From sequence record MN850605.1: a stretch of DNA of 64,000 nucleotides. One strand, 5' to 3'. Positions 886-53,469 of this stretch are shown here, in pieces (position 1 is the first letter of the stretch; each line of letters begins with the position of its first letter). A model generated the notes under the pieces. That model had not been told where the DNA came from. It saw only the letters and a list, made by a program, of their open reading frames with translations, and ran no database searches. The position numbers and the translations under genes were made by a program. This DNA is from Escherichia phage fjerdesal.

Positions 886-1434
886 ATGGAAAAAGATAAC
901 TTAAAAGATGTTGAAGGTAACTATCTAGTACTTGACTGGAGTGATGTTCGAGAAGCACTCTCCGAAGAAAATCTTGACTGGTTCGAACAAATTATCTTTG
1001 CAGTACGGCATAACAGAGAAGTTGAAAATGGTAAAGAGCCACTTGAAGGAATCTTTGTAGAAAGGTCTTATCCGTTCTATGAAGACACTTTGCAGAAAGT
1101 TAAAATGTACTTTAGACAGAAGAACCGTAAAGTGGTCACTATGGTATCTCTTGGTGGACAGAGTATGTCTGTGATGGAAGATATCAACCCTAAGAGACCG
1201 AGTAAAGGCGTTTGTATAAAAATCACAGGACATGAAGAGTATATCTCAGTTGATGACTTTAGTGCATTCTGTAATGGCTCTTGTGTCTTTAATGGTTTTC
1301 ACTATGATATCCGAGTTTACCCAATCAAGGGTGATGATATCATGATGCAGGTATTCGATAATAACAATGGATTTACTCATTTTTATCAGACAACCAAGTC
1401 ATCATTGAAAACAGTTCTGGAAACACTGATTTAA
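886..1434 (+). CDS. hypothetical protein
   Basis: ORF 811-1434 trimmed to internal ATG at 886 (MEKDNLK...) that follows the stop of the previous ORF. Confidence 0.4.
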   Translation: MEKDNLKDVEGNYLVLDWSDVREALSEENLDWFEQIIFAVRHNREVENGKEPLEGIFVERSYPFYEDTLQKVKMYFRQKNRKVVTMVSLGGQSMSVMEDINPKRPSKGVCIKITGHEEYISVDDFSAFCNGSCVFNGFHYDIRVYPIKGDDIMMQVFDNNNGFTHFYQTTKSSLKTVLETLI

Positions 1435-3092
1435 AATATCTTAAGAGCCTCCTTAATTGGGGGCTTTTTAATTTTTATAAAATTTTATCGGTTGTCCCAA
1501 CCTCTGGGTCACCATCATATGTGAATAAAATATCTATCCTTCTTAACAACCTTCTTAATCTTACTCTCTATATAGTTATATAGTACTATATAGTATCTTA
1601 GTAACTATCTAGTGGTCTTAATAGCCCTCTGTATAGCCCTTCTAAATAGCCATCTAAACACTCTTCTAACAAGCCTTCTAAACAACCTATACAATCATCT
1701 TAACCATCTCTCTATATCCTCTTAGAAGCTCCTATACACCTCTTAATCTCTAGGTTAGCTATGTTACTCTCTATAGGTGTTCACTAGGTACTACTAAGCC
1801 TCTATATAGACTGTTTTAACAAACTTAACAGGAATATCTTCACAGACCTTATCTCACAAGGTCTAACACGGTACTAACAAGGTATCTTATAAGCCTGTTA
1901 TTACCTGTATTTTTAAAAGGCTGTATAGGTAATTATTCAGAATCTTAAAATTTTTATAAAATAGGGCTATCAAGTCATTTTTTAGGGTCTTTGAAGGAAC
2001 TGAAAAATATCTGATTAGGATGTATATCTGCTTGGTAGCCCTTAACAGCCCCTTAACACCCCCTTTGCAAAATTTTAAAATATCCTTAACAATCTCTTAA
2101 CAGTTCTCACATCTTCTTAACAACCCTTCAAAGGTCTTAACAGATTCTTAACAGAACTAACAAGGCTGTAACAGTTTTCTAACAAGTGCTGAATAGGCTT
2201 TACAGAATCTTAACAGATGACTAACAAGAGCTAACAAGTTAATTTTAAAGAGTTATTTTGTTAAGATAATTAACAAGTTCCTAACAAGTGTTTAATCTTT
2301 TTAACAAGCTATTAACATGGTCACTATCTCTTGGTCTATAGTTCCCTTTCCCTCTTAGTGATTCTTTAAACATACCTCTTAAAAGCTCTCTATAGCTCTT
2401 TATAAGCTCTTTTAAGTCTCTTCCTAGTAGTTACACCCCAACTATACAGAAAGCTTTTTATAGGGCTTTACAGGAGCTTTTAAGGCTATGTCAAAGGCTC
2501 TTACAAGGCTTTTACATGGTCTTAACAGAGATTTAACAAGGGGCTAACAAGTCTCTAACAAGTGCCTTAAAAGCATAACTATGTAGGGATTGTTAAGAAA
2601 TTGTTAAGAAAATGTTAAGGGGGCTAGCATTTACGTAACTTTTAAGCTACTTTATATCCCCTATAACATACTTTTAAGACACTAACAAGCCCTTTTTAGA
2701 TATTCACAAGATAGCTAACGAGATGATAAAGCTTACACCCTTATAAGATTCTTTTAAGGCTGTAGGAAGCTTTATAAAGAGCTTTTAAGGGTGAGTTAAT
2801 GCAATCCCTTAAGTTAGGTTGATAAGGCTGTTATAGAGCTTTATAGAGCGTTTAAACGGTTGCCCTTCCCTTTCGGGTTATGGGCTTTTATTTAAGTTGA
2901 TTTGATAAGAGATTATAGAGTAGACTATAGAGTTATTGCTTTTAAGGTCTGGTAAGATTCTATCGAATCAGTAGGGTAGATTCTGGAAAGGAAAGGAAAG
3001 GGATTGTATAGAGGTTATTACATAGACGTAAAAAAGCCCCTATGAGAAGGAGCTTTGCAGGTATCTGGGGCTATTTAGCCCCGTTGCGTCGA
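1435..3092. repeat. 1.65 kb ORF-free region densely packed with short YTAACAR motifs (CTTAACAA, CTAACAAG, TGTTAAG) in both orientations; G-poor top strand
   Basis: no ORF of 60 aa or more on either strand; motif recurrence read directly; lies between convergent gene ends. Confidence 0.6.
1447..1469 (+). terminator. hairpin (GCCTCC-TTAATT-GGGGGC) followed by T5
   Basis: seen in sequence directly after the stop at 1434. Confidence 0.45.
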
Positions 3093-3341
3093 TTAGTTGT
3101 AACCTTGTTTATTGTAGTACAGTGAGATAATCAAGTCACCCCAGTAATGATAGTGATGCTCGTCGTTTAATGCCTCTTTTACAGCGTCTTTCCAGAAGTC
3201 ATCAGTAGGGTTATAATCTGGGATAACTTGCTTGATAACTGTCTTCACTAATGAAAAGCATTCATCAGTTCCACCGATATCAAATTTAACGTCCAGAGTA
3301 TAACAGCCATAAGCATTGACAGTTGCGCGGATAGTTGCCAT
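3093..3341 (-). CDS. hypothetical early protein
   Basis: ORF; start immediately follows a conserved intercistronic module with SD AGGAGA. Confidence 0.5.
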   Translation of the reverse strand: MATIRATVNAYGCYTLDVKFDIGGTDECFSLVKTVIKQVIPDYNPTDDFWKDAVKEALNDEHHYHYWGDLIISLYYNKQGYN

Positions 3342-5849: not shown

Positions 5850-6053
5850 TTATTTGTTATTTTTTACTACTTTTAAAACCGCACGATAGCCTAAGCAATA
5901 GGAATCACCGAAGAGCGACCGACCCATGAAGGAGTCCTCTGTAATATCTTTCGCCGTGACGGTTTTTTCTACGCCGTGAAAGAGAACTACATCACCGACT
6001 TTAATATCTTTGATGTGTGTAGTTTCAATGGTTAAACCGTTAATAATAGCCAT
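5850..6053 (-). CDS. hypothetical early protein
   Basis: ORF preceded by module. Confidence 0.45.
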   Translation of the reverse strand: MAIINGLTIETTHIKDIKVGDVVLFHGVEKTVTAKDITEDSFMGRSLFGDSYCLGYRAVLKVVKNNK

Positions 6054-6128
6054 TTTTGAATCTCCAGTTTAGGACTTTATTTAGTGGGGAAGGTCATTCC
6101 CGCCCCGTTGATGTGTAATTTAATCTAT
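6054..6128 (-). promoter_or_regulatory. conserved intercistronic module, variant A
   Basis: sequence identity to other variant A copies. Confidence 0.55.
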
Positions 6129-6160
6129 CTGAAAACCAATGTCAACAATTTTTTTTTTTT

Positions 6161-6580
6161 TTAGAGTTCTGCATAAATTGCATCACAGATACCACGAAAA
6201 TCATGATTTGTCAAATTACGTTGTAACCAAGTGGCGAAAAAGTCAGCGATTGCAAAGTTAGCGTCATACTCGACAGATAGCCACACTTTAACAGCAAACC
6301 GAAACATTTTCAAATCAAGCTCTTTATTCATTACCTTAGATTTGCCTAACATGTCGGACATTTCATATTGTGCACCGTCTAGCGTGATACCTGCTGCAAC
6401 GTCAGCCAATGAGTTTTTTACGTTTTCAACGTCTAAGATAACGCTTTGAATCTTCCCAATAATGTTGTGCAATGTTTCGTCCGGTGCTGATGACGTAATA
6501 ACATTAATCCGGTTAACGGTCAAACGTGCTTTTAAGATTGATAACTCGCGATTATTAATAGCCATTTTTAAGTTCTCCAA
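6161..6580 (-). CDS. hypothetical early protein (N-terminus MENLKMAI shared with 7726-7998)
   Basis: ORF; first 8 codons are part of the repeated module. Confidence 0.5.
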   Translation of the reverse strand: MENLKMAINNRELSILKARLTVNRINVITSSAPDETLHNIIGKIQSVILDVENVKNSLADVAAGITLDGAQYEMSDMLGKSKVMNKELDLKMFRFAVKVWLSVEYDANFAIADFFATWLQRNLTNHDFRGICDAIYAEL

Positions 6581-8978: not shown

Positions 8979-9764
8979 TTAGTTCTTTGCGGCTAAGAAG
9001 GTAACTTCTGGCGAAGAGAAAACTGTCTCGATATCCTCATCAGTTCTTGCATAGATGTAAGTATCTGCATCACTGCCAAATGTTACTGCAATCCTGTGAT
9101 TGCTCTTCGACAGGTGGGTAACTAGAGCGTTACTTAGAGACATCTTTTCAACCGGAGGGTTACTTTGATGTATCTTACCTTTTCTTCGTCTGAAGAGGGT
9201 AACTGCATTATCCGTGAACACAACTACACCTGCGAAGTATTCTGGTTCACAGTAGTTCTTCCAACCTGAGCGTAACTTGTGGTACATCTCTCCTTCATAG
9301 ACATATAGATAAACATCTACGCTCTTCATTACCTGATTGATGATAACTGTGACGGCTTGAGGGTCCAACCCACCGATACCTGCACCAATCATAGGTAAAC
9401 CAACTTTCTTCAACTGATTAACTTCACAGTATCTGTTAAGTTGCTTCAAAGATGACTCTAAAGCACTGTATCGGGCATCTTTACCAGTCTTAAGCTGAGT
9501 GTAAAGGTTAGCTATACGACCTTGTTTTAAACGTGCTACGGAGAAATTACCTAGTAAATTTTCACAGGGTTTGTGGCCTATACCACCTGCATATAGATAA
9601 ACTTCTGTATCGGTCTCATATGCTTCTGGGTAAAGTTTAGAAATCTTGTCAGCGATACCTGCACCCATTAAATTCATACAGTTGCAACCGTGACCAATGA
9701 TGTCAAACTTACCTTTATCAAATGCAGCAAAGATGTCACCATTGATGATTTTTACAATACCCAT
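8979..9764 (-). CDS. macro-domain protein (ADP-ribose binding or processing) with C-terminal extension
   Basis: N-terminal pattern GDIF...DIIGHGCNCMNLMGAGIA and later PMIGAGIGG resemble macro-domain motifs (GDIT...IVNAAN...GGGV; A-G-I-Y-G). Confidence 0.5.
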   Translation of the reverse strand: MGIVKIINGDIFAAFDKGKFDIIGHGCNCMNLMGAGIADKISKLYPEAYETDTEVYLYAGGIGHKPCENLLGNFSVARLKQGRIANLYTQLKTGKDARYSALESSLKQLNRYCEVNQLKKVGLPMIGAGIGGLDPQAVTVIINQVMKSVDVYLYVYEGEMYHKLRSGWKNYCEPEYFAGVVVFTDNAVTLFRRRKGKIHQSNPPVEKMSLSNALVTHLSKSNHRIAVTFGSDADTYIYARTDEDIETVFSSPEVTFLAAKN

Positions 9765-14574: not shown

Positions 14575-14590
14575 GGGGCTTTGAAGCCCC
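14575..14590 (-). promoter_or_regulatory. intercistronic palindrome GGGGCTTTGAAGCCCC embedded in a possible sigma70-like promoter (minus strand TTGACA-17/18-TTAAAAT)
   Basis: seen in sequence between rIIA stop and rIIB start; same stem family at 19697 and in module variant B. Confidence 0.4.
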
Positions 14591-17841: not shown

Positions 17842-17863
17842 AGCATTCTCCAGAAATTAAAAA

Positions 17864-17879
17864 GGCTCCCGTAGGAGCC
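17864..17879 (-). terminator. hairpin GGCTCC-CGTA-GGAGCC with T-run on the minus strand
   Basis: seen in sequence after the NAMPT stop. Confidence 0.6.
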
Positions 17880-17894
17880 TCTTATCATATACTT

Positions 17895-19676
17895 TTAAAG
17901 CTGCTTGTCAATATTATTTCGAATATCACCAAGAGTTGTGTAACCGTACTGCTCAGAGTCGCTAAAGACTAAACGTAAAGCACAAGCTGGATGTTCAAGT
18001 GCATCTGCAAAGCTCTGGAATCCATAGCCATCTACAGCTTTCAAATTCTCACCATCCCACATAGGTGCTACACCACCAAAGGCAGATTTCTTAACACCAC
18101 TATCTGTTTTAGGGTCTTTTGCAAGCATAATCTCTTTGCCACCAATGCTTGCAAGAGTTGCTTTGACAGCAAATGCAAAGGTGTCACGAGTCATGTACTG
18201 GTAAGTGTAAGAGCCTACACCAAACACCACGTTAGAGCTTGCAAACCCCATTTCATACAGACGCTTTAGGATTTCGTTTGCACGTTCCAACGTGATAGAG
18301 TCACCATAGATAAGTCCAATGTGCTCATCCAGTACCTTAAAACCTTTAGAGTTGATAGTTCCTCCAAAGATGTTATACAATGTCTTAATAGCTCCATCAA
18401 TCTCTGCTACAGGGCGTGTTACAACGTTTGCAGAGCCAACCATATAAGCGTTCTTCAACATCACTGTGTCAGCAACTTCAAAGTCTTCTCTGTCAACAAC
18501 CATTTCGTAGCCTTCTGACAGTAGCCATCCAGCAATACCATAGCTGACGTTTTCAAGCTTCATGTTCAGAACAGCATTCAGCATTGTGTCACTGGCTTCC
18601 AGCTTACTAAGGTGCTCATAATAAGCCTTTTTAGCGCACTCTAAGTGGATTGCTTTATAACCTGTGACAATGTGTACAGGGTCTCCAGAGTCAGGACGAA
18701 TTACCAGTTTGCCATCACGTTCCATAATTTCTTTACGGAGTGCTGGTAAGATTTCTGACACAGTTCTCCAGAAGTTATAAGTATCTGAAACAATACTTGC
18801 AATACCCGTTGGGTAAGTTTCTGTTAAGAAACGACGGAAGGTTTGTAACTCACCTTTAAAGCGTCTTTCTTCTTCAATCAACTCATTGCCACCTTCCCAA
18901 GCAATGTTTGCACACATTACAGAGTGCTCAGTGGCTGGTACAGAGCTACCAATATCAGAGATTGGGTAGGACTGTCCATAGATTCGTTTAGCCGTATACA
19001 CAGCAGGGAAGCTATCAGTTCCTTTAAAGCTGGTTAAGTGACCTACAGCGTTAAATGCGTCATCAGTAAAGCCGGACATACCACGCATAGCAAAATCATG
19101 GCACTGATAAGGTAAATGTAAGTCATTGTCACAAGTAAGGTCAGCCCACTTCTTACAGATGCGTTTGTAATGCAATGCAATAGTTGCAATGGTGCAAGCC
19201 TTCCAAATTTCAGCAGAGAAAGCATCTTCCAGATAACCTGCTACCCAATGAAAACCTGAAACAGTGTTCTGAAAGACAATCATCGGGACACGCATTGGAA
19301 CAACTGTGCCTTCTTCTACAGCGTATACTTCAACTGGTAGATAACCTAAGTCGTGAAGTGCTTCCCAATGCTCTCGACCGATAGCATCTTTACCCAGAAC
19401 ACCATTCATGACTTCTAAGATTTCATCAATGGCTTCTTTTTTATCACGTTCAAAGAAAGTGGCATTCCAGTGGTCTATCAAGTAATCTTTAACAAAACGT
19501 TGAATACCAAAAGCCACTACACCGTCAATTGCTAAAGGGCTGTTAAACCATTTATCACTACGTGGTGTTAGGTTGAACATCAAGTACTCTGTTGCGCTAG
19601 GATACTGGTAAACATGACCAGATTTGTAAGCATCTGCATTTAAACCTGCTGGTACTGCATAAAGTGATTTAGTCAT
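17895..19676 (-). CDS. nadV: nicotinamide phosphoribosyltransferase (NAMPT)
   Basis: DAYKSGHVYQYP, HDFAMRGMSG...FKGTDS, VPATEHSV, SIVSDTYNFW, IRPDSGDPV match NAMPT signature blocks. Confidence 0.85.
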   Translation of the reverse strand: MTKSLYAVPAGLNADAYKSGHVYQYPSATEYLMFNLTPRSDKWFNSPLAIDGVVAFGIQRFVKDYLIDHWNATFFERDKKEAIDEILEVMNGVLGKDAIGREHWEALHDLGYLPVEVYAVEEGTVVPMRVPMIVFQNTVSGFHWVAGYLEDAFSAEIWKACTIATIALHYKRICKKWADLTCDNDLHLPYQCHDFAMRGMSGFTDDAFNAVGHLTSFKGTDSFPAVYTAKRIYGQSYPISDIGSSVPATEHSVMCANIAWEGGNELIEEERRFKGELQTFRRFLTETYPTGIASIVSDTYNFWRTVSEILPALRKEIMERDGKLVIRPDSGDPVHIVTGYKAIHLECAKKAYYEHLSKLEASDTMLNAVLNMKLENVSYGIAGWLLSEGYEMVVDREDFEVADTVMLKNAYMVGSANVVTRPVAEIDGAIKTLYNIFGGTINSKGFKVLDEHIGLIYGDSITLERANEILKRLYEMGFASSNVVFGVGSYTYQYMTRDTFAFAVKATLASIGGKEIMLAKDPKTDSGVKKSAFGGVAPMWDGENLKAVDGYGFQSFADALEHPACALRLVFSDSEQYGYTTLGDIRNNIDKQL

Positions 19677-19696
19677 CTTTTAATCTCTCTCAAAAT

Positions 19697-19712
19697 GGGG
19701 CTTGGAAGCCCC
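19697..19712 (-). terminator. intercistronic hairpin GGGGCTTGGAAGCCCC
   Basis: seen in sequence between prs and NAMPT. Confidence 0.45.
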
Positions 19713-19721
19713 TATAAAGTT

Positions 19722-20618
19722 TTAATCAAGGTTTGCTACAGTAACTTGGCTATAATGTGTTAAGCCACGGTCTTTAGCTTCTCCTAAAGAGTTTGTAGTG
19801 TAGATATGGTCAATACCATTGTCAAGCAAGTTTTCAACATCTTTAGAGAAGATACCATGTGTTACATAGAGTTCCACACGTTTTGCACCTGCTTCACGAA
19901 GATGCTTAGCTGCTTCTATGAAGGTTCGACCACCATCACAGATATCATCCAGAATCATGACTGTTTTATCTGTCAAATCAACATCATCAAGGATTCGCAT
20001 ACCAGTAATTTCACCAGTCTTAAGGTTACGCACCTTAGACATTGTGATATATGGTTTATCCACCTCTTTAGCGGTCTCTGCAACCTTCTTAGCAGCACCT
20101 GCATCTGGGGCTACTAAGTAATCAACCAGTGGGTCATTTGCATAGTGGACTGCAATCTCCTTTTGAGGAATACTCTGGAAGCAGTTAAACAGGTTATCTG
20201 GAACGTAACTGTGAGGGTCAACTGCACAGACTGCACCAAACCCCATTGCATTTATCTGTTTAGCAAAAACCTTTAAAGCTGCTGCGTCGCCTTTAAACAT
20301 GTGACGGTCATAACGTGCATTTGGTAAGTAGTAAAAGATGACAGTCTTTAAAGCATAATCATGAGGAATTAAATCATCAATTGCTTCTTTAGCAAGTGCC
20401 ACAGCAAACAATGTATCCTTATCATAACCTTTTACAATCATAATCACATTGTTGATGGATGATGCTGCATAAGCAGTGAAATCAACAAACTCTGGCGAAA
20501 AGTGTCCACCAATCTCACCAGAAGGAAATTGGATGATGTTAAACTCATCTTCATGAGTTCCTTTAGTTGGTGAATGAACTGTAACACGGATAGATGTTTT
20601 CATAGTTTTCTCTCTCAA
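19722..20618 (-). CDS. prs: ribose-phosphate pyrophosphokinase (PRPP synthetase)
   Basis: FPSGEIGG, YLPNARYDR, VAPDAGAAK, PRPP-binding VMILDDICDGGRTF, AGAKRVELYVTHGIFS parallel bacterial Prs blocks. Confidence 0.75.
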   Translation of the reverse strand: MREKTMKTSIRVTVHSPTKGTHEDEFNIIQFPSGEIGGHFSPEFVDFTAYAASSINNVIMIVKGYDKDTLFAVALAKEAIDDLIPHDYALKTVIFYYLPNARYDRHMFKGDAAALKVFAKQINAMGFGAVCAVDPHSYVPDNLFNCFQSIPQKEIAVHYANDPLVDYLVAPDAGAAKKVAETAKEVDKPYITMSKVRNLKTGEITGMRILDDVDLTDKTVMILDDICDGGRTFIEAAKHLREAGAKRVELYVTHGIFSKDVENLLDNGIDHIYTTNSLGEAKDRGLTHYSQVTVANLD

Positions 20619-20893
20619 TCAAAAGTTACGTTTGTTACTGCCATTGCAGATTTGCATTTTGCAGGGTCTACAACGTGATAAAGTACACTACAGTTACCTG
20701 TGCTGTCTGGTACAGGTTTAACCCATTGTTGCTTGACAGTTGGTTCGCCTAAGTCTTTGTAAGAACCATCTGTAAAGTTGTTTACCATCTCAAGTGCAAT
20801 TGGCTCTGGAACATGACCACGTATCATGTACATTTCACAACCATTACCTCCTTCACTGACTAATGGTAAAATCTCCCACTTTTCTTTAGCCAT
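20615..20893 (-). CDS. hypothetical protein
   Basis: ORF. Confidence 0.4.
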   Translation of the reverse strand: MAKEKWEILPLVSEGGNGCEMYMIRGHVPEPIALEMVNNFTDGSYKDLGEPTVKQQWVKPVPDSTGNCSVLYHVVDPAKCKSAMAVTNVTFD

Positions 20894-21401
20894 TATAAGT
20901 TGCCCTATAAACTGTCTCGAACTTCAACAGGAGAGATATTGCCAAATCTGTATAGTTGTTGTCAAGCACATCTGGCATATTATTTTTGATATATCTCTCT
21001 TGCTCTTCATAGGTCATCTTAGGGGCACTTAAAAGGCTATCTCCTTGCTTCTGGTTATCAGCTTTAGTCTGAATAAACCAGTTTGCACAGTGATGTTCAC
21101 CACCTTTTGTAACAGGTTTGTGGTGGCCTAATGTGAAGGATTGACTGCCTGTGTATCTGCAAAGTTTATTGAGTACTGTAATGGTGTTCTTCACAACAAA
21201 ACATTCATACAGGTTGTCTATGGTGTAGTATGGATAATATCGAAATAATGCTCTTTCACGAGTACTCTCACGATTCCAGAGAATCATGTGATTGGAGTTG
21301 GAAGGGTCGTATTGGTGGGAGTCAATGAACTCTTGACGTTCCTCAAAACTGAGTCTTAACACTGACATTGCAGCAGAACGTTTCAGATTTGACAGATACA
21401 T
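20886..21401 (-). CDS. hypothetical protein
   Basis: ORF. Confidence 0.4.
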   Translation of the reverse strand: MYLSNLKRSAAMSVLRLSFEERQEFIDSHQYDPSNSNHMILWNRESTRERALFRYYPYYTIDNLYECFVVKNTITVLNKLCRYTGSQSFTLGHHKPVTKGGEHHCANWFIQTKADNQKQGDSLLSAPKMTYEEQERYIKNNMPDVLDNNYTDLAISLLLKFETVYRATYNG

Positions 21402-21420
21402 ATTATCTCCAAAATAAAAA

Positions 21421-21439
21421 GGGAACCTTTACAGTTCCC
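21421..21439 (-). terminator. hairpin GGGAAC-CTTTACA-GTTCCC with T-run on the minus strand
   Basis: seen in sequence. Confidence 0.5.
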
Positions 21440-21452
21440 TTATAGTATCTGC

Positions 21453-21773
21453 TTACTGAGCTACTTTCAAGATTCTTGTGAATGGAATTTCACTTTCTTC
21501 CATTAACTCTTTAGTTTCTTTGGTAACTTTCACAAAGTTATCTAGGCAGATAATCTTCTTATCTTTCTTACTATAGGTTAATTTAACCTTTTCAATATCT
21601 TTCTCAGAGCTTTTCTCTTCATTGAAGAGTTTTACAGCCTCTTTGAATGGGAGATATGAGCCATCATTATCACTAATGAATCCTGTACCACAATAGTAGG
21701 AGTTATGCTCTCTAGCCATAAACTGGCACAGTAAGAAAATCTGTAATTTACGAGTGTTATAAACTTTGCTCAT
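21453..21773 (-). CDS. hypothetical protein
   Basis: ORF. Confidence 0.4.
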   Translation of the reverse strand: MSKVYNTRKLQIFLLCQFMAREHNSYYCGTGFISDNDGSYLPFKEAVKLFNEEKSSEKDIEKVKLTYSKKDKKIICLDNFVKVTKETKELMEESEIPFTRILKVAQ

Positions 21774-23791: not shown

Positions 23792-25936
23792 TTACATAGA
23801 AACTCTGTCACGAATCTCAGCGATTTTTGCATCGTTCATTCGGGATTCACCTTTAATCTTAGTCCATCCAAGATACCCACACACCCTGTTAATCACAGAG
23901 ATATCATGTGAGTGACAAACTTCACACTCTTCAATATCTGATTTTGGTCTGTTACCACAATGCTCACAGATTGCTAAGTCAAAGTTAAGTCCCTGATAGA
24001 AACCTTTCAACATCCCTCTTGTAATACAACTTTTAAGTGCTGATAAGTTTTCTGGGTTAGCTACTCTTACATACTGGATTCTACCGCCTCTACAGATATG
24101 GAAGAATGGTTCTTCTAAGTCCTGCTTCTCAAATGGTGAGATGTCTGCTGCAACATTCATATGGAAACTGTTTGTAAAGTATTCCTTATCAGAAACGCCT
24201 TTGATAACGCCAAACATATCTCTGAACTGTTTTAGTTGAGTTCCGCAAAGTGATTCTGCTGGAGTACCATAGACGGCATATAAGAAGCCATCTTCATTTT
24301 TAAACTCTTCGGTTTTCATGTTGATGTATGCCAGAACATCATATGCAAAACTATAGCTTCCAACTTCATGAAGTCGTTTACCTTCAGCAAGAACAGACAA
24401 CTCATCAAGCGCAGTAACACCAAAAGAAGCTGTGAAGGACTTCACAATATCCCAACCAACCTTGTCAGTAGGTTTCTTAGTTCCTTTGTACAGACCACCT
24501 TGTGTGAATGCAAGAGGGTTAGAACTTGCTGGCATATTAGCAATCATTTCGTAGCGTTTCTTATGGAAACTACGAATCATCTCTAGGTACTTATCAAGCT
24601 CTTTCCAGAAATCTAAACCATTCTCTTTAGAATACTGGTAAATCATTGGTAAGTTCAAAGATACAGCACCAATGTTAGCACGACCAACGTAGAACTCTTC
24701 TCCACCCTCATTAAGATATGGAGATAAGAAAGCTCTACAACCCATCGGTGAAATTACCTTACCAGAACGCTCAAAAGCCTCTGCTACAGCACCATGACCA
24801 GACACACTTAAGAAATCTGGGTACATTGCTTTAGAGCAACACTCAATAGCTTTACTGTACAGTTGACCTTGACAGATATTCTCATCATGTCTCTTCTGGT
24901 CATAAATATAAACCAGTTTAGGGAATACAACAGGTTTTTTGCTCTTGCCTTGTCCATTCATACGAACATCTAGGAGAGTACTTGCAATCATGTATTGGAG
25001 TCGATTATCCTCATTAGACATATCTGAGTCAAGTAAACCAAATGTTAAAGTTGTGAATGCAAAATCACCACGGCTACAAGGTACGGTATTTAGTTTCATC
25101 TCAAGTGACTGAAAACCTTGAGTCAGTTCAATTTGTAACTGCTCCATTACATAATTGTGGTAATGCTCTTTAGGAATACCATAAGATGATGCTTTCTCAG
25201 CATGATAGCGTAGAGACTTCTTAGCATACGGTACAAGTACCTTATCAATCTCTGCTAAAGTAAAACCACCAAATTGCTGTGCAGTTGCTGAAAGTACTAC
25301 GTCACCAATAACCTGCAACGCTGACAGTACAGATTTAGGTTCACAGTACTCAATGCCGGACATTTCAAAGCCACCTTTTAGTACTTTACCAATGTCAAAC
25401 AGGCAACAGTTAATACCACCAAAAATCAGGTCTCTCAAATCGTGGATATAGATAAAGCCTTTCTCAATGGCTTCAAGTTCCTCTGGTGTTAGATGATACT
25501 GTTTAAAGATTTCTTTAGTCAGGTAACCACGGATAATTGAACCTTTCGTAGAAATTAAACTGCTGTCAAAGTTAGCATTTTCACGGTCACCTAAGAAGAG
25601 TGTGTCTCTAGTCTTTTGGTAAAGTTCATCCCAATTTTGAGCAACCTCTTTACGGTAATTTCTGTATGTTGAGTAAGACTCGTAAATCTCGTGATTAACT
25701 TCTGCCAAAGCACCCTCAACAATACTGTGAATATCATTTACTGAAATGAGCAAATTATTCTGCTTAGTGGACTTTACCAGAATCCTCATGAATGCTGACT
25801 CAAGAGCTTGGGTAACATCTGGTGGCAGTTCTTTATATCCAACCCTGTTAGCTGACTTTGTTACTGCCGCTAAAACTTTTTTGATATCAGGTTCTTCAAG
25901 TGAGCCATTCTTTTTAATAATCTGTACTTTGTTCAT
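23792..25936 (-). CDS. nrdD: anaerobic ribonucleoside-triphosphate reductase (class III)
   Basis: C-terminal glycyl-radical motif RVCGYLG and Zn ribbon CEHCG...CEVC; size; adjacent nrdG. Confidence 0.9.
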   Translation of the reverse strand: MNKVQIIKKNGSLEEPDIKKVLAAVTKSANRVGYKELPPDVTQALESAFMRILVKSTKQNNLLISVNDIHSIVEGALAEVNHEIYESYSTYRNYRKEVAQNWDELYQKTRDTLFLGDRENANFDSSLISTKGSIIRGYLTKEIFKQYHLTPEELEAIEKGFIYIHDLRDLIFGGINCCLFDIGKVLKGGFEMSGIEYCEPKSVLSALQVIGDVVLSATAQQFGGFTLAEIDKVLVPYAKKSLRYHAEKASSYGIPKEHYHNYVMEQLQIELTQGFQSLEMKLNTVPCSRGDFAFTTLTFGLLDSDMSNEDNRLQYMIASTLLDVRMNGQGKSKKPVVFPKLVYIYDQKRHDENICQGQLYSKAIECCSKAMYPDFLSVSGHGAVAEAFERSGKVISPMGCRAFLSPYLNEGGEEFYVGRANIGAVSLNLPMIYQYSKENGLDFWKELDKYLEMIRSFHKKRYEMIANMPASSNPLAFTQGGLYKGTKKPTDKVGWDIVKSFTASFGVTALDELSVLAEGKRLHEVGSYSFAYDVLAYINMKTEEFKNEDGFLYAVYGTPAESLCGTQLKQFRDMFGVIKGVSDKEYFTNSFHMNVAADISPFEKQDLEEPFFHICRGGRIQYVRVANPENLSALKSCITRGMLKGFYQGLNFDLAICEHCGNRPKSDIEECEVCHSHDISVINRVCGYLGWTKIKGESRMNDAKIAEIRDRVSM

Positions 25937-53423: not shown

Positions 53424-53469
53424 TATAAATTTTCCTCTTAAAAGGGGCTATAAAGCCCCTGTAAAGAAA

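Follow-up and report, generated by a model that had tools for sequence, protein, structure and literature searches.

A probable NARP1 operon for NAD+ reconstitution in Escherichia phage fjerdesal, behind the names of a PRPP synthetase and a nicotinamide phosphoribosyltransferase

A 64,000-nucleotide stretch of Escherichia phage fjerdesal (MN850605.1; the whole stretch is called the window here) carries, between positions 17,895 and 20,618, two adjacent genes whose products belong to the superfamilies of ribose-phosphate pyrophosphokinase (Prs), the enzyme that makes phosphoribosyl pyrophosphate (PRPP), and of nicotinamide phosphoribosyltransferase (NAMPT or Nampt). A sequence-only reading had taken the pair for a salvage unit that converts ribose-5-phosphate and nicotinamide to nicotinamide mononucleotide (NMN), the last step to NAD+ being left to a host enzyme or to a gene elsewhere. 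This raises the question of which substrates the two enzymes act upon, and whether a step is missing from the pathway at all. The answer put forward here, to which we would give a probability of roughly 90%, is that the locus is an intact, standard operon of NAD+ reconstitution pathway 1 (NARP1), consisting of Adps and Namat and already described. Orthology, synteny, the conservation of residues for catalysis and specificity, and the fold as predicted are shown from the window itself, and the enzyme activities and the counter-defence phenotype are those reported in the literature for orthologues and homologues. Under the names that this answer gives them, the two genes are:

19722..20603, minus strand: adps, putative ADP-ribose pyrophosphate synthetase (Prs-like), 293 amino acids from an ATG, Pfam PF00156 and PF14572
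17895..19676, minus strand: namat, putative nicotinamide ADP-ribose transferase (NAMPT-like), 593 amino acids, ATG start

Both open reading frames (ORFs) are present on the minus strand at the places where they had been described, the upstream one being listed as 19722..20618 with 298 amino acids from a TTG. The NAMPT-like protein of 593 residues matches Pfam NAPRTase (PF04095, E=7e-35) and NAMPT_N (PF18127), NCBIfam NF006629 with 469 bits and PHROG 448, 'nicotinamide phosphoribosyl transferase', with E=2e-202; the Prs-like protein of 298 residues matches Pfam Pribosyltran and Pribosyl_synth and PHROG 619, 'ribose-phosphate pyrophosphokinase', with E=4e-97. These family matches are far above chance, and the part of the sequence-only reading that placed a Prs-superfamily gene next to a NAMPT-superfamily gene is confirmed. 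Its view of the pair as a two-gene unit is upheld as well: the genes lie 45 nt apart on the same minus strand with adps first, in an order that is syntenic with genes 79-80 of phage Bas63, with gp228-229 of phage ICP1 and with a pair in a Pseudomonas phage. Given that the Bas63 orthologue is annotated with 293 amino acids and that TTGAGAGAGA stands a few bases 5' of an ATG at both adps and namat, the start of adps is most likely the ATG at 20603 (293 amino acids) and not the TTG at 20618.

NARP1 was first found in genes 79-80 of Bas63 (JohannRWettstein, MZ501086) by Osterman et al. (10.1101/2024.02.11.579819). Judged by its nucleotide sequence, the phage of the window is likewise a Felixounavirus, the 4.5 kb around the locus being 91-96% identical to the best-matching Felixounavirus records, and the order nrdG, small genes, gene 79, gene 80, small genes and rIIA of Bas63 is that of the window. 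The Namat of the window is identical to Bas63_0080 at 584 of its 593 positions (98%) and the Adps to Bas63_0079 at 227 of 293 (77%), both alignments being ungapped. The two loci share the 45-nt spacer, an identical hairpin stem, both insertions of Namat and a C-terminal domain of Adps (residues 181-293) that is 95% identical, and they differ in the N-terminal domain of Adps (residues 1-180), which in the window is another allele and only 67% identical.

In Bas63, the function of the operon has been examined directly. Without genes 79-80 the phage plates about 20-fold less well on SIR2-HerA cells and NAD+ depletion is deeper, and ADP-ribose pyrophosphate (ADPR-PP) was seen only where wild-type phage had infected cells with SIR2-HerA (10.1101/2024.02.11.579819). 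Wild-type Bas63 still overcomes SIR2-HerA in a pncC nadR double mutant (10.1101/2024.02.11.579819); since the defence is overcome without PncC and NadR, NMN salvage is not the route. The role against NAD+-depleting defences that had been suggested for the fjerdesal pair thus finds support in the phenotype of its orthologue. The Bas63 protein failed to purify and homologues from SpbetaL1 were used instead: purified SpbetaL1 Adps forms ADPR-PP from ADP-ribose and ATP but yielded no product in the Prs control reaction, and SpbetaL1 Namat forms NAD+ from ADPR-PP and nicotinamide, NAD+ being the sole product when PRPP is also offered (10.1101/2024.02.11.579819).

Whether the proteins of the window carry the signatures of this chemistry can be read, for Adps, from two segments:

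20004..20045, minus strand: catalytic beta-hairpin of Adps, TMSKVRNLKTGEIT, including Lys190, which is aligned to Lys185 of ICP1 Adps
19920..19949, minus strand: PP loop of Adps, DDICDGGRTF, residues 219-228, from the alignment with ICP1 Adps

Among the NCBIfam models for Prs only the generic TIGR01251 accepted the Adps of the window (125 bits against a cut-off of 113); every equivalog cut-off was failed, the best equivalog score being 105.7 bits against a cut-off of 296. The protein is 34% identical to the biochemically validated Adps of ICP1 and 24% identical to E. coli Prs. The canonical ribose-5-phosphate loop DDxIDTGGT is absent, the loop at that place being DDICDGGRT, and the assignment of the protein as a canonical ribose-phosphate pyrophosphokinase is contradicted by this loop together with the equivalog scores. 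The motif DDICDG is common to the Adps proteins of the window, ICP1, Bas63 and a Pseudomonas phage, as is THGIFSKG; E. coli Prs has DDMIDTGGT and THPIFSG at these sites. For the comparison with ICP1 the locus was taken from GenBank, and the residue letters of the gene agree with the numbering in PMC13586617. In ICP1 Adps, K185 is essential, as K185A abolishes the formation of ADPR-PP; R87, H121, D161, D212, D213 and D216 make up the acceptor site; K185, H121, D161, D212 and D213 were probed by mutagenesis; and the remodelled PP loop (C215-S220) is the donor site for the pyrophosphate of ATP (PMC13586617). All of the catalytic and acceptor residues have counterparts in the window, where K190, R97, H131, D167, D219, D220 and D223 align with K185, R87, H121, D161, D212, D213 and D216 respectively. 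ICP1 Adps also lacks the C-terminal alpha11-alpha12 module that Prs uses for regulation and filament formation (PMC13586617), and in the window Adps this segment is likewise gapped, the protein ending about 25 residues before the end of E. coli Prs. The likeness to ICP1 Adps (PMC13586617) therefore extends over the catalytic lysine, the acceptor arginine, histidine and aspartates, both motifs, the absence of the C-terminal helices of Prs and the position directly upstream of Namat; the difference lies in an overall identity of 34% and in F18, F92 and the cap residue F223, which are not conserved in the alignment. A PDB sequence search with the window Adps returned canonical Prs structures only, with 4twb as the best match (E=2e-18) and without those of ICP1 Adps. 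The Adps of the window would pyrophosphorylate ADP-ribose and not ribose-5-phosphate, as demonstrated by assay for the enzymes of SpbetaL1 and ICP1.

For Namat, the specificity for the donor is expected to lie in a further two segments:

18183..18215, minus strand: clamp helix motif of Namat, GSYTYQYMTRD, residues 488-498 with Y490 and Y494, as defined in PMC12774641
19527..19568, minus strand: clamp loop of Namat, TPRSDKWFNSPLAI, residues 37-50 with K42 and W43, K42 being aligned to R40 of SpbetaL1 Namat

The best PDB sequence matches of the window Namat are the SpbetaL1 Namat entries 9w5w and 9w5x (E=6e-128). Its AlphaFold2 (AF2) model (pLDDT 94.5, pTM 0.92) finds the same two entries, 9w5x and 9w5w, at the top of a Foldseek search (TMt 0.95), above H. 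ducreyi NadV and human NAMPT. The core that holds nicotinamide and the ribose phosphate is conserved (D15, Y17, F195, R198, D221, H251, R327 and D329) with two substitutions, A196 in place of S190 and S460 in place of A362. The catalytic residues, whose lack had been named in the sequence-only reading as a possible objection, are thus present on alignment in both Adps and Namat. According to PMC12774641, a 'selectivity clamp' of two parts recognises the adenine of ADPR-PP, one of the parts being a variable loop that gives a further stacking residue and follows a rule by which its third residue is Arg, or else Lys or Tyr with the stacking residue right after it. The clamp loop of the window, RSDKWF, has Lys and then W43 as the stacking residue, which is the arrangement given for Bas63 in PMC12774641. 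The clamp helix carries its aromatic motif in the window and in 70 of 70 aligned homologues; at the same site, true Nampts have GGALLQKVDRD (Xanthomonas, Xcc) and GAQTYQRNTRD (HdNadV), and the aromatics corresponding to Y490 and Y494 are absent. SpbetaL1 Namat (9W5W/9W5X, PMC12774641) therefore shares with the window enzyme the fold and the catalytic core residues, and differs from it in an identity of only about 38%, in an Arg in the clamp loop where the window has Lys-Trp, and in the absence of insertions of 16 and 88 amino acids. These features suggest that the window Namat prefers ADPR-PP over PRPP and would make NAD+, a preference demonstrated by assay for SpbetaL1 Namat only. Homologues of about 496 amino acids annotated in the chromosomes of Klebsiella, Cronobacter, Kosakonia and other enterobacteria also carry the aromatic clamp, as GSFTYQYNTRD, which agrees with the reported occurrence of bacterial NARP1.

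The mechanism proposed for the locus would start when an effector NADase of the host's defence, of the SIR2, TIR or SEFIR kind, cuts NAD+ into ADP-ribose and nicotinamide. Adps, a repurposed PRPP-synthetase fold, would then move the beta-gamma pyrophosphate of ATP onto the 1'' hydroxyl of the distal ribose of ADP-ribose, the products being ADPR-PP and AMP, and Namat, a repurposed NAMPT fold, would exchange the pyrophosphate of ADPR-PP for nicotinamide and so regenerate NAD+ in one step, its adenine clamp (K42/W43 and Y490/Y494) picking ADPR-PP over PRPP. NMN would not be an intermediate, and an NMN adenylyltransferase (NMNAT) would not be required. Both genes are read in one direction, and a strong intrinsic terminator lies 12 nt past the stop codon of namat (centroid fold -16.6 kcal/mol, z = -2.1):

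17860..17883, minus strand: intrinsic terminator 3' of namat, its stem of 10 bp including 5 G-C pairs and leading into a T run

Pfam scans for the enzymes of an NMN route covered 72 ORFs of the window, namely all those of at least about 85 amino acids without an obvious identity together with ten large ones, and gave no CTP_transf_like, NUDIX, NadR or PnuC match among them, the scans covering ORFs from about 85 amino acids upwards and none of the genome, about 23 kb, that lies beyond the window; the complete annotation of Bas63 likewise holds no NMNAT, Nudix, NadR or PnuC. The earlier statement that no NMNAT is recognisable in the window is thereby sustained for the 72 ORFs. The search for NMNAT or Nudix partners that had been proposed for the whole genome has been answered in part, as none was found within those ORFs or in the annotation of Bas63. 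As NARP1 needs no such enzyme, its absence is expected and is not a gap. What has to be given up from the sequence-only reading is the conversion of ribose-5-phosphate and nicotinamide to NMN, given the orthology to Bas63, the chemistry of ADPR-PP and the signatures in Adps and Namat, and with it the supply of a last step by the host or by a gene elsewhere, as Namat would yield NAD+ directly and the NMN-using host enzymes PncC and NadR are dispensable for counter-defence in Bas63.

A number of points weigh against the identification of the locus as a standard NARP1 operon. The in vitro chemistry would have to be carried over from SpbetaL1 and ICP1 homologues (33-40% identical), and the enzyme activities and the counter-defence role in this phage are likewise taken from orthologues and homologues. 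The N-terminal domain of Adps is not the allele of Bas63 (67% identity over residues 1-180), and the adenine-stacking residues F18 and F92 of ICP1 align with K14 and M102 of the window; the alignment is unreliable in this N-terminal part, where F103 of the window adjoins the column of F92. Furthermore, Namat keeps an NMN-forming activity with PRPP in vitro, and a minor NMN route may exist beside the main one. We nevertheless infer that this allele of Adps and this phage behave as the studied systems do.

A first alternative accepts the NARP1 chemistry and holds that more than the standard pathway is present. The window Namat is about 100 amino acids longer than the studied enzymes, owing to two insertions:

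18396..18659, minus strand: inserted subdomain of 88 amino acids in Namat, residues 340-427, between RPDSGD and YGD, from alignment and the AF2 model
18861..18908, minus strand: short variable insertion in Namat, NIAWEGGNELIEEERR, residues 257-272, just past the catalytic His251, from alignment

The longer insertion is absent from SpbetaL1, from ICP1 and from all solved structures of Namat and Nampt, and the structural paper on Namat mentions no insertion (PMC12774641). Whether modelled alone (pLDDT 91, pTM 0.80) or as part of the whole protein, it is confidently predicted to fold autonomously into a compact alpha/beta subdomain, with no significant structural relative in the PDB. A tblastn search with the segment matched 253 phage records, almost all of them enterobacterial phages, and among the matches listed the segment sits in NAMPT-annotated genes of genomes of about 85-90 kb; at the same site, other Namat lineages carry unrelated insertions. 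The shorter insertion is gapped in SpbetaL1, ICP1 and the homologues of about 496 amino acids, and varies in length and sequence among the long forms. The larger insertion may add a property that is absent from the SpbetaL1 enzyme, which could for example be docking to Adps for the direct handover of the labile ADPR-PP, or regulation; the unlinked gene described next may act in trans; or both may be so. That at least one of the two is true seems to us rather doubtful.

The unlinked gene in question encodes a Macro domain:

8979..9764, minus strand: Macro-domain gene, 261 amino acids, Pfam PF01661, a candidate accessory not established as part of the system

A Macro phosphatase, Adpp, is encoded in some NARP1 operons; it converts ADPR-1''-phosphate, the product of the RES-type NAD+ phosphorylase aRES, to ADP-ribose, and plain NARP1 fails against aRES (10.64898/2026.01.28.702374). 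It is thus conceivable that the unit is larger than two genes, a dispersed form of this extended system (NARP1-AP) in which the Macro protein of the window would serve in trans as the ADPR-1''-phosphate phosphatase that feeds Adps and so confer resistance to aRES. The Macro match is above the Pfam cut-off (32.1 bits against 22, residues 25-141), and the protein is 31% identical (E=2e-22) to the product of a Macro gene of Pseudomonas phage SW_PA2862_14_24 that is located two genes downstream of Namat; an unlinked copy would moreover have escaped the published survey of NARP1-AP, which covered only two genes on either side of NARP1 (10.64898/2026.01.28.702374). However, this is unlikely for several reasons: first, the gene lies about 8 kb downstream of the operon, on the same strand and more than 20 genes away; second, some 2,800 phage records contain a member of the Macro family and roughly 1,260 an Adps homologue, a more than twofold difference, and the family is common also in phage groups in which no NARP1 was seen here, some of the matches being annotated Tk.4; third, its nearest solved relatives are enzymes of the TARG1/OARD1 type (E about 1e-5), Poa1p not being among the matches; and finally, the protein has a C-terminal extension of about 100 amino acids with no known function. 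In length and relative position it corresponds to Bas63_0095, a 'putative phosphatase', and Felixounavirus matches that are 96-99% identical carry that annotation. None of the four genes flanking the operon has a Macro match, the gene at 8979-9764 being the sole Macro gene of the window. NARP1-AP of Vibrio phage Gary, with the genes for Adps, Adpp and Namat (10.64898/2026.01.28.702374), therefore shares with the fjerdesal locus the core of Adps and Namat and a Macro protein in the same genome, and differs in that the Macro gene of the window is outside the operon, about 8 kb off, with a phosphatase role that is only putative.

The reading from which this analysis began, a true Prs and a true NAMPT that make NMN, with NAD+ finished by a host enzyme or by an unseen phage NMNAT as in salvage of the type seen in NARP2 or phage KVP40, is very improbable. 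The names in Pfam, NCBIfam and PHROG do say Prs and NAMPT, the public annotations of relatives follow them, and homologues of Namat make NMN from PRPP in vitro. Against this, the operon of Bas63 works without the host enzymes PncC and NadR and ADPR-PP is formed in vivo; SpbetaL1 Adps formed no product in the Prs control reaction; Namat takes only ADPR-PP when both donors are present; the window enzyme has the adenine-clamp motif in place of a Nampt-type sequence; and no NMNAT was found in the window, within the scope of the scans, or is annotated in Bas63. Furthermore, Osterman et al. found no phage with both NARP1 and NARP2 (10.1101/2024.02.11.579819). NARP2 of Vibrio phage KVP40, composed of a Nampt and a bifunctional Nmnat, has in common with the window a NAMPT-family enzyme and the countering of NAD+-depleting defences, but it runs from PRPP to NMN and needs its Nmnat, whereas in the window no Nmnat was found, the gene of the NAMPT-like enzyme has a Prs-like neighbour and the enzyme itself bears the clamp for ADPR-PP. 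That the pair is instead a general booster of nucleotide metabolism, which feeds phage DNA synthesis with PRPP and pyridine nucleotides and has no part in counter-defence, is hardly tenable: the locus does lie in a nucleotide-metabolism region near nrdA, nrdB, nrdD and nrdG, the window also encoding thymidylate synthase, DHFR and a dNMP kinase, but the deletion phenotype of Bas63 was reported on SIR2-HerA hosts, ADPR-PP appears only with the defence present, and in cells that lack a defence system NAD+ was not raised by NARP1 phages (10.1101/2024.02.11.579819).

With the locus taken as a standard NARP1 operon, the variation between related loci can be considered. The part of Adps that differs from Bas63 is:

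20064..20603, minus strand: N-terminal domain of Adps, residues 1-180, a divergent allele, from the comparison with Bas63

Nucleotide identity to Bas63 falls to 63-76% only between about 20650 and 20150, over some 500 nt, and is mostly about 90% or more in the flanks. Among 28 related loci there are two classes of Adps N-terminal allele joined to a shared C-terminal domain that is 95-100% identical, and the allele classes of Adps and of Namat are reassorted across these loci. By sequence, the window carries the Adps allele other than the one studied in Bas63. PHROG 12872, with 547 profile positions, is matched at positions 48-224 by the Prs-like protein and at 236-534 by the NAMPT-like one, and the spanning of both proteins by one profile, one in each half, suggests that fusions of Adps and Namat exist in some phages, a point in favour of a functional coupling of the two enzymes.

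The hairpin that had been reported between the two genes is indeed there, and its stem recurs in the window:

19697..19712, minus strand: intergenic hairpin, GGGGCU-UCCA-AGCCCC in RNA, a 6-bp stem rich in G+C within the 45-nt spacer, followed by AUUUUG and the ribosome-binding site of namat
3067-3082, 14575-14590, 19697-19712 and 53444-53459, spacers of minus-strand genes: copies of the hairpin stem, from a motif count

The centroid fold has a free energy of -11.5 kcal/mol and the hairpin is modest when taken alone (z = -1.7). Across 22 relatives whose spacer is short, hardly any change is seen in the stem, while the four bases of the loop vary freely, and this contrast points to selection on the structure of the hairpin. 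It was not called as a terminator, only four T residues following the stem. The stem GGGGCT-N4-AGCCCC occurs in four copies in the window against an expectation of 0, all of them in intergenic spacers of minus-strand genes, and the presence of the identical stem in three other spacers of the window speaks against the hairpin being a regulator specific to NARP1. The family is probably a general punctuation element of this phage, either a leaky or partial terminator or a hairpin that stabilises 3' ends of mRNA. The copy at 14575 lies within a good promoter-like match, TTGACA-18-TAAAAT; a part in a promoter is unsupported for the copy in the NARP1 spacer, where only a poor -10 element can be made out by eye. 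In 6 of the 28 related loci (L014, L016, L022, L023, L031 and L033; at about 5880-6400 there) an ORF of 163 amino acids with an HNH-type motif, probably a homing endonuclease, stands between adps and namat; the window has no such ORF at this place.

The neighbourhood of the operon runs from nrdD and nrdG through small ORFs to adps and namat, and then through further small ORFs to the orthologues of rIIA and rIIB of Bas63. The nrdD gene is a single ORF of 714 amino acids at 23792-25936 on the minus strand; the annotation of Bas63 has nrdD in two joined pieces, with a homing-endonuclease gene between them. The four small genes that flank the operon (92, 171, 114 and 117 amino acids) gave no informative Pfam match, and neither a Macro nor a RyR match. 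Directly upstream of adps lie the gene of 171 amino acids at 20886-21401, with a weak HNH-like PHROG match, and the gene of 92 amino acids at 20615-20893, both on the minus strand; sites resembling a terminator and a promoter are found at about 21419-21470 and no terminator was called between these two genes and adps, and the two may be co-transcribed with NARP1. Elsewhere in the window, a stretch of 1.66 kb (1434-3093) has no ORF of at least 45 amino acids and contains 27 copies of YTAACAR, a density of 16 per kb compared with 1.2 elsewhere. Most of the copies are on the plus strand and many follow one another at intervals of 11 nt, which resembles an array of iterons or binding sites; Bas63 too has an unannotated stretch of comparable length. 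A tRNA scan of the window found none.

In summary, the system at this locus is already known, and as the same operon in the sister phage Bas63 was the discovery case of NARP1, the locus adds nothing fundamental to it. The Namat insertion, the two N-terminal alleles of Adps and the unlinked Macro gene are leads of modest value; a dispersed NARP1-AP, if true, would be of a type that surveys based on operons would have missed. As a NARP1 carrier, the phage would be predicted to resist defences that release ADP-ribose and nicotinamide (SIR2-HerA, type I Thoeris, DSR1, DSR2 and SEFIR) and to be sensitive to aRES, whose product is ADPR-1''-phosphate, if the Macro protein does not make up for it. The two genes are still labelled 'ribose-phosphate pyrophosphokinase' and 'nicotinamide phosphoribosyltransferase' in public records, Pfam, NCBIfam and PHROGs, and this naming steers readers towards an NMN pathway from which the last step is missing; the identity of the pair as Adps and Namat removes that apparent gap.

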